From IMG/VR virus record IMGVR_UViG_2740892229_000022: DNA of 35,130 nucleotides. One strand, written 5' to 3'. Made by a program: the position numbers. Within the stretch, counting starts at the first letter, position 1. Each line of letters starts with the position of its first letter. This document shows positions 12,001 to 15,000 of the stretch, one piece after another. This DNA comes from a virus. Taxonomy: Duplodnaviria > Heunggongvirae > Uroviricota > Caudoviricetes.

Positions 12001-15000
12001 GATTGAACAGATCAATATCGCCCTTGAACATAAAGGTTCCGGTAACTTTTCAGCGTGGGTTATTGAAGCCTGCAGGAGAAGGCTGGCAACAGATGCAACG
12101 CATCTGCGTCCGGCCAGCATGACAAATAACGAGAAATGAACGTTCGGTTACAGGAGCGGGTACCCACTGTCCTCCAACAATATTTCATCTTCATACCCGG
12201 CGGAACAAGACTTACCCAGCCGGAATGTACAGAATAACAACAGAGTGATAATTAATTTCTGATGAAATAATCAGGGTGCAGAAGGACTAAAGATAAACGT
12301 TTTCTTCACGCCTTTACGCGGCCTGTCCTTCTCAAATCGCCATTTTGCCATCGCCTTTACAACCTGCTCATCAAACAGATGGTGCGGCTCTGAACGGATA
12401 AACTCAATTCGGGTGACAGTACCATCAGCACCAATATCAAACTTCACATCAACCCGTCCCTTTATATAATTTGCCGCTGCATAGGCCGGATATTGTGGTA
12501 ATGCCTTAACCAACTGTCGGGGCATATCTGTTTTATGTTGCGTACAGCCCATAACCAGAGAAGACAACAAAATAATTAACGGAAGATTTCTTTTCATTTT
12601 CATTCCCGGCACAGATAAGAATAAGTCTTATTCTAACAATGCCACCCTGTCGGCCATCAATCCTCTGCTTAATGGCAACGACAATTATCCGACTTAAATC
12701 ACAAATCAGACACATGACATAACAGGTCTTGCGAGGTAACACATCGTCCGGTTTCTTCCACCATCGCACCGAACCAGCGACCATGAGGGGACAACGCCGC
12801 GCTCCGTTAACGCGGTAAACCCCGGTGTGTATNNNNNNNNNNTTCCTGCCAGTTCTGAATGGTACGGATACTCGCACCGAAAATGTCAGCCAGCTGCTTT
12901 TTGTTGACTTCCATTGTTCATTCCACGGCCAAAAACAGAGAAAGGAAACGACAGAGGCCCAAAAGCTCGTTTTCAGCACCTGTCGTTTCCTTTCTTTTTA
13001 GAGGGTATTTTAAATAAAAACATTAAGTTATGACGAAGAAGAACGGAAACGCCTTAAACNNNNNNNNNNAAGGCCAAAAAGCCCGTTTTCAGCACCTGTC
13101 GTTTCCTTTCTTTTCAGGGGGTATTTTAAATAAAAACATTAAGTTACGACGAAGAAGAACGGAAACACCTTAAACCGGAAAATTTTCATAAATAGCGAAA
13201 ACCCGCGAGGTCGCCGCCCCGTAACCTGTCGGATCACCGGAAAGGACCCGTAAAGTGATAATGATTATCATCTACATATCACAACGTGCGTGGAGGCCAT
13301 CAAACCACGTCAAATAATCAATTATGACGCAGGTATCGTATTAATTGATCTGCATNNNNNNNNNNTTTTCAGCACCTGTCGTTTCCTTTCTTTTCAGGGG
13401 GTGTTTTAAATAAAAACATTAGGTTACGGCGAAGAAGAACGGAAACGCCTTAAACCGGAAAATTTTCATAAATAGCGAAAACCCGCGAGGTCGCCGCCCC
13501 GTAACCTGTCGGATCGCCGGAAAGGACCCGCGAAAATGATAATGGTTATCAGTTGCAGCAAATCCAGTTTCTTCCACCATCGCACCGGACCAGCGACCAT
13601 GAGGGGACAACGCCGCGCTCCGTTTACGCGGTAAACCCCGGTGTGTATCGTTTTTGATTATCCCCGCACACTCGCGCAGAGTAGTCTCCCTGTCGGGCTG
13701 CGGTCTCTGTTAATGAGGGAATACAGCGACGATACGGCGCATCAGCAAAACTTAGTTCAGGCACTGAGTGCGGATATAGTCCTGTGCCCCTTCCAGCTGC
13801 TTCTGCATTGTCATCAACCGTTCTCTGAGGATGAAATAATCCCGTGTAACGGTGTCTGCCAGTTGGGGGCCGGTTGCATTATCCACGCGGGCGGTGCCGG
13901 TGGCTTCACGCACGGGACCTGGACAGGTGGCGTTGATCCGCAGGCTGCGGTGACCAGCGGCAACGTCAGCGCGAAGAGTTTCATTTTCAGCTCTCGCATC
14001 GGCTAATTCCCTCGAGTATCTGGCATCAAGTGCAGCAACATCACGCTGGCGCTGCTGCATATCAGTAATGGTTGCATTTGCCAGCTCCAGCTCACTGACT
14101 TTTTTATCGCGCTGCTCTTTGTAGGTTATGGCGTTATCACGGTAATGATTCAGCCCCAGACTAAGCGCACCACAGGCCACCAGCAGGGCAATGATGACCA
14201 CGCACAGTACGCGGTTCATTTCACCACCAGCGTATCTGACCGATGAAATAACCGGAGGCCATAATCACAAACACCCGCCAGATAAGAATGAACTTCCAGG
14301 TAGATAATTTTTCAGCCATCACTCGAATCTCCCGAATCAGTTTGCTAAAATCAAACACACTTTCTCCTTTGACTTTTCCAGAGTCAGGAAACACAAAACC
14401 CCGCTTGCAGCCAACAAACGGGGTTTTTACTTTTATTCACTTAGTTTTTGTCAGTTCGCAGGATTTCGTGTTATCCGTCCGTGTGAGCAAACCTCATTTT
14501 TCAGCAAAATATTCTTCTTATCTGTCGATTCCCCAGCACGCCAGCGCGCTCTCCTGGTCACGACGGGATACCTGACCGTAACAGTTGTTTGAACGGATAC
14601 GGCAGTCTCTGCCACCGTCCTTAATCNNNNNNNNNNTCATGAAACAATCTTGTTGACTTTATTCACTTACATTTTGCCAGTTCGCAGGATTTCGTGTTGT
14701 CTACCCGCGTTGGCCAACGTCATTTTTCAGCAAAATATTCTGCTTACCTGTCGATACCCCAGCATGCCAGCGCACTCTCCTGGTCACGTCTTGATACCTG
14801 ACCGTAACAGTTGTTTGAACGGATACGGCAGTCTCTGCCACCGTCCTTAATCCACCAGCGAATCGCCTCACACGCTCCCCTGCGATCGCCTGCATTAAGC
14901 CGCTTATAAAACGTCGACGGGAAACACTTACCGGGGCCAATGTTATAGGGGCAAAATGACGCGATACCTGCTTTTTGTGGCTCGGTCAGTGGAACTTTTA

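Follow-up and report, generated by a model that had tools for sequence, protein, structure and literature searches.

A gene carried by lambdoid prophages encodes a predicted lipoprotein that consists, beyond its signal peptide and a short tether, of an isolated TonB C-terminal domain. We describe it from a stretch of 35,130 nucleotides of viral DNA (the window; IMG/VR record IMGVR_UViG_2740892229_000022, Caudoviricetes), and refer to it as the TonB_C gene. By analogy with known inhibitors of TonB-dependent receptors, we tentatively propose that it is a prophage moron whose product acts as a TonB decoy tethered to the outer membrane, where it would damp or gate TonB-dependent import; we place this reading somewhat short of an even chance. 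The features of the window on which the argument draws are as follows.

12271..12597, minus strand: coding sequence of the TonB_C lipoprotein, 108 amino acids (aa) (open reading frame list, sequence, and RefSeq start)
12547..12597, minus strand: signal peptide, aa 1-17, with lipobox L-V-M-G (pattern match IILLSSLVMGC)
12544-12546, minus strand: codon of the predicted acylated Cys18; residue +2 is Thr
12286..12522, minus strand: TonB C-terminal domain, aa 26-104, equivalent to Escherichia coli TonB 153-231 (Pfam, TIGRFAM, PDB alignment, and AlphaFold2/Foldseek)
12603..12607, minus strand: Shine-Dalgarno-like GGGAA, 5 nt upstream of ATG 12597 (read from the sequence)
12618..12634, minus strand: perfect 8-1-8 palindrome AGAATAAG-A-CTTATTCT, candidate operator, 20 nt before ATG 12597
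12614..12632, plus strand: best 19-bp match to the Fur consensus, GATAAGAATAAGTCTTATT, weak at 13/19
12630..12638, minus strand: candidate extended -10 element TGtTAGAAT, overlapping the distal palindrome arm; its TGTTAGTAT motif is shared with loci L007 and L015
12150..12750, minus strand: moron cassette, approximate, ~600 bp (DNA absent from related phages without the gene)

The protein is an isolated TonB C-terminal domain

The reading frame stops at 12271 on the minus strand and could begin upstream at GTG 12612 or ATG 12603, but RefSeq chose ATG 12597, which gives 108 aa. The GGGAA at 12603-12607 fits this start and is kept in locus L002, phage JLK-2012, and locus L065. A preliminary description of the gene had given its product as 109 aa, one residue too many; the architecture that it proposed, a lipobox signal followed by an isolated TonB C-terminal domain, holds.

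In profile searches the product matched both Pfam TonB_C (PF03544; E=5.3e-15, 56.1 bits against a cut-off of 24.6) and TIGR01352 (56.5 bits against a cut-off of 27.1), in each case above the curated cut-off. A phmmer search of the PDB returned TonB structures 1u07, 2gsk, and 2grx at E values of about 5e-16, and aa 26-104 aligned with E. coli TonB 153-231 without gaps, 31 of the 79 positions (39%) being identical. TonB residue numbers given here were mapped manually on the PDB alignment, counting back from Q239. On this mapping, TonB residues Y163, P164, F180, G186, F202, W213, and F230 are retained and Y215 is replaced by Phe. The phage protein has Leu in place of Q160, Lys in place of R158, and Tyr in place of R166, and Tyr is found at the R166 position in most of the family. 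The functional weight of these positions comes from the TonB literature.

The predicted structure agrees with the alignment. An AlphaFold2 model built on 20 family members had a predicted local distance difference test score of 96-98 over residues 30-105 and adopted the TonB C-terminal fold, a three-stranded sheet on two helices, with the edge strand that TonB uses for Ton-box pairing preserved. By Foldseek, the model superposed on TonB from the BtuB complex (2gsk_B; TM-score 0.92, root mean square deviation [rmsd] 1.0 A) and from the FhuA complex (2grx_C; TM-score 0.92, rmsd 1.1 A), and over these two and 1u07 the TM-score ranged from 0.88 to 0.92 and the rmsd from 1.0 to 1.4 A. With an ungapped alignment and superposition at about 1 A, the domain can be said to follow TonB residue for residue, as had been claimed. 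A search of viral folds in BFVD gave no match at E<=0.001.

The likeness ends at the domain boundary. Equivalog models for TonB itself (NCBIfam PRK10819 type) scored 50-73 bits against cut-offs of 265-448, so that all failed, and the match was confined to the C-terminal 80-90 positions (about 150-240). The membrane anchor and proline-rich rod of TonB are absent, and a lipoprotein signal peptide stands at the N terminus instead. Judged by this architecture, the phage protein is not a TonB energy transducer, since neither the anchor nor the rod is there to transduce energy. Motifs SEPxHLFD and YPxYA are conserved in the family, unlike in true TonB.

The N terminus reads MKRNLPLIILLSSLVMG and then Cys18. 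The segment IILLSSLVMG|C18 matches a PROSITE-like lipoprotein pattern, as expected from the preliminary description, and 8 residues run as a tether from Cys18 to the TonB_C domain. The lipobox Cys and the short tether are kept in nearly all sampled subfamilies. Under the Lol sorting rules, a lipoprotein with no Asp at +2 is predicted to reach the outer membrane. Given the lipobox, Thr at +2, and no Asp retention signal, we therefore predict that the TonB_C lipoprotein is lipid processed and located in the outer membrane.

Distribution and moron character

The window is a draft scaffold that mixes repeats of several prophages, and adjacency across its gaps is untrustworthy. It contains eight runs of exactly 10 N (8790-8799, 11636-11645, 12833-12842, 13060-13069, 13356-13365, 14627-14636, 17471-17480, and 18253-18262), the pieces between these runs have duplicated ends, and two packaging modules are present, one gpA-type (5406-8068) and one with TerS, TerL, and HNH genes (8896-11897). 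The TonB_C gene lies on a 1187-bp piece, 11646-12832, with a 10-N gap on either side. Because the window is split in this way, we took the gene context from complete genomes. There the order is Rz, 338 bp, TonB_C, ylcI/ynfO (opposite strand), HNH, TerS, and TerL, and phage JLK-2012 likewise has Rz / TonB_C / YlcI-YnfO / HNH / TerS / TerL; the window gene with 230 bp upstream is nearly identical to the complete-genome records. A moron position of the bor/lom type, as first suggested for this gene, is thus found in complete genomes, while the window itself is only a scaffold.

A 501-bp core containing the gene was present in 417 of 5426 complete E. coli genomes (7.7%), always chromosomal and always labelled "TonB family protein". 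Shiga-toxin-producing E. coli commonly have the gene, and strains of O157, O111, O145, and O103 are among the carriers. Contigs encoding the identical protein number at least 1000, and strains with the exact allele include O111:H- 110512 and O145 RM9467. In the phage collection, the gene was found in JLK-2012, Lys8385Vzw, and four Shiga toxin (Stx) 1a-converting phages, and a 71%-identical form in phage 21, ev017, Perceval, and three PhiR phages. The phage 21 copy, which is annotated "TonB C-terminal domain protein", comes after bor and before cosQ. A 40%-identical form is present in a Klebsiella prophage, and a profile-free exhaustive search recovered a family of roughly 110-aa lipobox-plus-TonB_C proteins with 36-49% identity. 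Scans of IMG/VR and of genomes placed relatives in prophages of Klebsiella, Raoultella, and Shimwellia, all retaining the lipobox; an Erwinia homologue was also found (sequence only). Sakai prophage Sp15 was examined and did not have the TonB_C gene.

In all the loci that we examined, the lysis cassette comes first, then the gene in the same orientation, and then the terminase. The position of the gene is unchanged while the endolysin type upstream varies (GH24, GH19 with DUF2514, or GH108), and it adjoins three different packaging modules: HNH/TerS/TerL, a Nu1-type terminase, and the phage 21 cos. Only 7 of the 162 phage records matching the flanks carry the gene. With 11900-12800 of the window as the query, matches to phages without the gene were confined to query positions 1-174 or 1-250, and the upstream likeness to the lambda-type post-Rz segment stops near 12751. 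These observations, together with the lysogen transcription of the 71%-identical homologue described below, bear out the proposal that the gene is a moron, a presence/absence cassette beside differing packaging modules.

Comparison with the 71-72%-identical homologues (phage 21 and L004) gave ratios of nonsynonymous to synonymous substitution rates (dN/dS) of 0.12-0.19, and the TonB_C gene is therefore under purifying selection. The object as such is already known, in that the open reading frame has long been annotated and one homologue has been published as a moron. Searches of the full-text literature turned up no account of lipobox, TonB_C domain, and Fur box as an architecture common to the family.

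Two minor observations concern the phage 21 form. Many database homologues of this type diverge into frameshifted tails after KWRFEK (P0010, P0012, P0013, P0018, P0019, and P0021); the phage 21 gene is without a long homopolymer at KWRFEK, and the tails could be cryptic-prophage decay or assembly error. Also, at the phage 21 right end (L005, about 4300-4445, minus strand), a small unannotated open reading frame with a signal-peptide-like start, MKIRNILAISLATSSFSCLAF, was seen by eye on the opposite strand between TonB_C and cosQ.

Expression of a homologue and the candidate promoter

Published transcriptomes of E. coli LF82 cover the homologue in prophage Perceval, LF82_160 ("TonB fragment"), which was scored as a moron with expression 8-fold above the prophage background in LB medium (PMC9928086). 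Its transcripts were present in LB, in macrophages, and in cultures sampled at 1 h and 6 h; all ten samples gave log2 values of 5.0-6.6, compared with 2.3-4.3 for the neighbouring Rz, endolysin, and terminase genes (PMC9928086). As it stands above late genes that are silent, this homologue is served in the lysogen by a promoter of its own. From the 1-h to the 6-h sample it rose from 5.2 to 6.6 as fepA, entC, and sitA dropped by 3.5-5 log2 units, and in the differential-expression test bor was induced about 100-fold and LF82_160 was not (PMC9928086).

By analogy with these RNA-seq data, the window gene is expected to have promoter activity of its own, for which the extended -10 element at 12630..12638 is the candidate. 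In the L065 variant, whose coding sequence is 89.6% identical, a 43-nt block with the -10 element, the palindrome, and the Shine-Dalgarno sequence is unchanged, and 8 of the 15 bases just upstream of this invariant block differ.

The upstream palindrome and Fur

The palindrome upstream of the gene had been called perfect, and it is: at 12618-12634, the two arms of AGAATAAG-N-CTTATTCT match without exception. By chance, a 35-kb window should have about 0.67 palindromes of this size with spacer 1, so that one is not unusual, and the window holds ten with spacers 0-3. Likening it to a Fur box, as the preliminary description did, has proved right in position and doubtful in match. The palindrome occupies the same slot as Fur boxes of 14-16/19 in five distant subfamilies; the window site itself reaches 13/19 against the 19-bp consensus and 9/14 against the 7-1-7 Fur model. 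Sites of 13/19 are expected about 5.1 times per window, although within an 80-nt promoter region of this local composition the probability is 0.018; for a match of at least 15/19 in 80 nt it is 2.5e-4.

The boxes of most relatives are better. Loci L007, L013, and L015 have ATTGATAAT(T/C)ATTATCAAT (15-16/19); L016-L021 have TTGAAAATCATTATCA (15-16/19), about 46 nt upstream of the chosen start; L056 and L061 have TATTGATAATTATTATCAATA (15-16/19); and L057-L059 have ATTGAGAATTATTATCAAT (15/19). In the Klebsiella/Raoultella/Shimwellia group, most loci have TGATAATGTTGATTATCA or a sequence very near it, with scores that vary from locus to locus (12-14/19). Four of the five subfamily groups have the box downstream of the promoter and upstream of the ribosome-binding site. 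The boxes come after a TGTTAGTAT or TGTGATAGT element that aligns with TGTTAGAAT in the window, and the proximal half of the window palindrome, ATTCTTATC, is one base from ATTATTATC. The 71%-identical phage-21/Perceval clade is without the proximal palindrome arm and has no Fur box.

Our reading of these alignments is that Fur repression was probably ancestral for the family and lost in the phage-21 clade, and that in the window clade the Fur box was probably replaced by, or degenerated into, a different perfect dyad, a putative operator. Fur control of the window copy is uncertain. There is close to an even chance that the palindrome is not a Fur site here, but serves as operator for a different dimeric regulator or belongs to a constitutive promoter, with steady low expression of the gene in the lysogen, as in Perceval. 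The weak match at the window site and the frequency of such sites by chance point this way, as does the half-site AGAATAAG, which differs from TGATAAT although the dyad is perfect and is not what simple decay of a Fur box leaves; the related clade wholly without the proximal arm is transcribed across conditions with a profile opposite to that of Fur-regulon markers. Fur is favoured by the placement of the palindrome exactly at the Fur-box position of the five subfamilies, after the same TGTTAG(A/T)AT, by the single base between ATTCTTATC and ATTATTATC, and by the low probability of a 13/19 match within the promoter region. When compared by eye with the ArgR, Zur, MntR, CRP, and similar consensus sequences, the palindrome resembled none convincingly. 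The control sequence named for a comparison of Fur binding with 12614-12634 is TGATAATnATTATCA.

Elsewhere, A/T-rich palindromes with Fur scores of 14-16/19 (e.g., GATGATAATCATTATCAC) were seen at 13251-13275, 13532-13556, and 8196-8220 in the window and at about 4540-4556 of L005. A few bases downstream of the copies near 13250 and 13540, and of the one in the right end of phage 21, stands a cosQ-like GGGTCCT; after the copy at 8196-8220 comes GGGTCCTCC. All show a loose alignment with the promoter/Fur block of the TonB_C moron (TTGTGATA...GATAAT.ATTATCA), which could mean that they are left over from the moron promoter, that they are packaging or IHF-type sites, or that the likeness is coincidental.

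A possible TonB decoy and its alternatives

The decoy reading can be set out as a series of steps. A self-contained cassette of ~600 bp inserted between the lysis and packaging genes of lambdoid prophages would yield a product that is exported, lipid modified at Cys18, and held at the outer membrane, where the 8-residue tether would keep the TonB C-terminal domain beside the periplasmic face of TonB-dependent transporters. It might then compete with TonB, either by binding transporter TonB boxes through the strand-pairing surface that TonB uses or by binding TonB itself, and either mode would damp or gate TonB-dependent import. The lysogen would be protected from phages, colicins, and siderophore-microcins that enter via TonB-dependent receptors. 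Under ancestral Fur repression, the protein would appear together with the iron-regulated receptors. By analogy with the systems discussed below, exclusion of phages and colicins is plausible, and the lysogen would probably gain by being shielded from phages, colicins, and microcins that depend on TonB.

Two precedents bear on this. The claim that free TonB fragments inhibit import is supported in that TonB-dependent import of iron is inhibited when the periplasmic domain of TonB is overproduced (Howard et al. 2001, J Bacteriol 183:5885, cited in PMC9841981). Like the phage protein, the engineered fragments are isolated and energy-uncoupled domains in the periplasm; they are artificial, soluble, and overexpressed, whereas the phage protein is natural, predicted to be lipid anchored, and equipped with its own control region, ancestrally of Fur type. 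In addition, the outer-membrane lipoprotein Llp of phage T5 blocks the periplasmic face of FhuA, its binding competing with TonB for the same FhuA surface (10.64898/2026.03.26.714494). Like Llp and the Cor proteins of phi80, N15, and HK022, the TonB_C lipoprotein would be a small phage outer-membrane lipoprotein acting on a TonB-dependent transporter. The likeness is one of functional analogy: the protein has the TonB_C fold, and its expected target is the generic TonB box rather than one receptor.

Compared with the C-terminal domain of TonB (about 150-239), the phage protein has the same fold and keeps the aromatic core, but the lipoprotein signal and tether replace the anchor and spacer, the C-terminal tail is shorter, and the Q160 and R166 positions are changed. 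The bor gene of lambda and phage 21 occupies the same niche between lysis genes and cos, also encodes an outer-membrane lipoprotein expressed in the lysogen, and adjoins the TonB_C gene in phage 21 and Perceval. The TonB_C gene differs from it in not being annotated bor, in lying on the late-gene strand rather than the opposite one, and in its LF82 expression pattern.

Several points weigh against the decoy. Q160 and R166 of TonB are implicated in Ton-box and plug contacts, and they are Leu and Tyr here. A decoy made under iron starvation would hinder siderophore uptake when it is needed. The poor Fur match of the window site and the expression of the box-less Perceval copy, opposite to fepA, entC, and sitA, also count against it. 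PADLOC gave no match for the lipoprotein, and the full-text literature yielded no functional study of it or of a homologue. A simple scan of the minus strand gave no sigma-70 promoter for the gene, and a terminator scan gave no terminator, with a folding z of -0.4 downstream. Exclusion at the carrier phage's own receptor is also unlikely: over its C-terminal 250 aa, the central tail fibre of phage 21 groups with those of lambda and 434 among the matches listed, so that exclusion of its own kind is probably not the role, and no phi80, HK022, or N15 record was among 40 evenly spaced entries listed of 263 tail-fibre matches.

Of the other functions considered, the one with the most in its favour is a positive or different iron-related role, in which the protein parks on the TonB boxes of unloaded transporters and so saves scarce TonB for loaded ones, has another partner, or serves as a fitness factor together with further iron genes of the prophage. 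Fur boxes across the family and the presence of sitABCD in the same genome in phage 21 and Perceval agree with such a role, and motifs SEPxHLFD and YPxYA, which are unlike true TonB, could point to another partner. FusB, a TonB homologue of Pectobacterium that binds its substrate protein ferredoxin by the same fold (PDB 7zc8 and 9hi3, among the structural matches), indicates that the fold can take partners other than TonB boxes. FusB is, however, a full-length membrane-anchored energy transducer, unlike the domain-only lipoprotein, which has no anchor or ExbBD-contact region and so cannot energise transport; nor can a periplasmic outer-membrane lipoprotein reach extracellular host proteins. 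Inhibition is also the sole effect known from experiment for a TonB C-terminal domain set free in the periplasm (PMC9841981). We consider this role quite improbable.

It is also possible to read the gene by its position or by its annotation. The protein matches phrog_1267, labelled "Rz-like spanin" (lysis), over its full length (E=2.6e-42), it is a lipoprotein always encoded directly after the lysis cassette on the same strand, and some Klebsiella loci (L040) have no obvious Rz between endolysin and TonB_C gene, all of which would suit a lysis accessory or spanin-type protein acting at the outer membrane during lysis. Yet separate Rz and/or Rz1 genes are present in the window, L002, L065, and phage 21; the C terminus, FIFSPSAP, has no hydrophobic stretch and thus no u-spanin transmembrane segment; and the protein is not of the short, proline-rich, Rz-embedded o-spanin type. 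Lysogens transcribe the Perceval homologue at a time when the Rz and endolysin genes are silent, and Fur boxes point to non-lytic control. With anatomy and expression both contradicting the PHROG 1267 label, we rejected the spanin reading as very improbable. A dead fragment of host tonB picked up by a phage is what the annotations of ev017 and Perceval ("partial tonB-like", "TonB fragment") imply, and many truncated or frameshifted phage-21-type homologues exist in databases. Such a fragment would hardly have gained a signal peptide and lipobox that several genera have kept, nor be under the constraint seen in dN/dS, found as an exact sequence on so many contigs, furnished with a conserved promoter/operator, and transcribed in a homologue, and we regard this origin as barely credible. 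As a separate observation, the phrog_1267 label looks derived from position and misfits the anatomy of the protein.

Should the decoy reading be true, the gene would be a generic prophage means of closing every TonB-dependent gate from inside, with a fold and a logic unlike those of Llp and Cor, which are receptor specific, and a natural counterpart of the laboratory dominant-negative TonB fragments. It could then affect sensitivity to colicins, microcins, and phage therapy, as well as iron uptake, in pathogens, and the family-wide Fur boxes make a clear testable prediction. Even a negative result would correct the labels "TonB family protein", "TonB fragment", and "Rz-like spanin". A stronger version, which we think rather unlikely, is an unrecognised class of prophage defence, a TonB mimic tethered to the outer membrane and timed by Fur along with the iron-regulated receptors, which would cap many TonB boxes at once for broad protection from TonB-dependent phages, group B colicins, and siderophore-microcins, in phage 21 and Perceval maybe paired with SitABCD against the iron cost.

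Phage 21 (L064 9968-12001; record 21967-24502) and Perceval (LF82_184-187) carry sitABCD, which encodes an iron/manganese ABC importer, making two metal-related morons in one prophage with the TonB_C gene. That the TonB-independent SitABCD offsets the iron cost of a decoy is speculation.

Other features of the window

The YlcI/YnfO gene at 11939-12139 (plus strand; DUF3950, E=4.4e-20) is convergent with the TonB_C gene and marks the downstream boundary of the cassette; among Stx and lambdoid phages it is far commoner than the cassette. On the other side, at 12843-13640 (minus strand), a lambda-type right end with cosN and Nu1 start occurs in three incomplete copies separated by N gaps (GGGCGGCGACCTCGCGGGTTTTCGC...; MEVNKKQLADIFGASIRTIQNWQE). 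We considered these lambda-like cos/Nu1 fragments as true neighbours of the TonB_C gene and rejected them, as complete genomes have only the 338 bp between Rz and TonB_C and the fragments are N-separated.

At 19235-20194, 20288-20536, and 18665-18879 (all minus strand) lie a gene for a 319-aa RIP-family (ribosome-inactivating protein) A subunit, presumably of Shiga toxin, three tRNA genes just upstream of it, and a match to the small RNA STnc100 downstream. The toxin gene is flanked by a DNA methylase gene (20577-21635) and a NanS-p-like DUF1737/SASA esterase gene, which an N gap interrupts (16177-18539). Late regions of Stx prophages typically have this layout. In the early region, Rfam matches to the C4 antisense RNA (85 bits) and the isrK Hfq-binding RNA (57.6 bits) adjoin each other at 27913-28000 and 28025-28101 on the minus strand.

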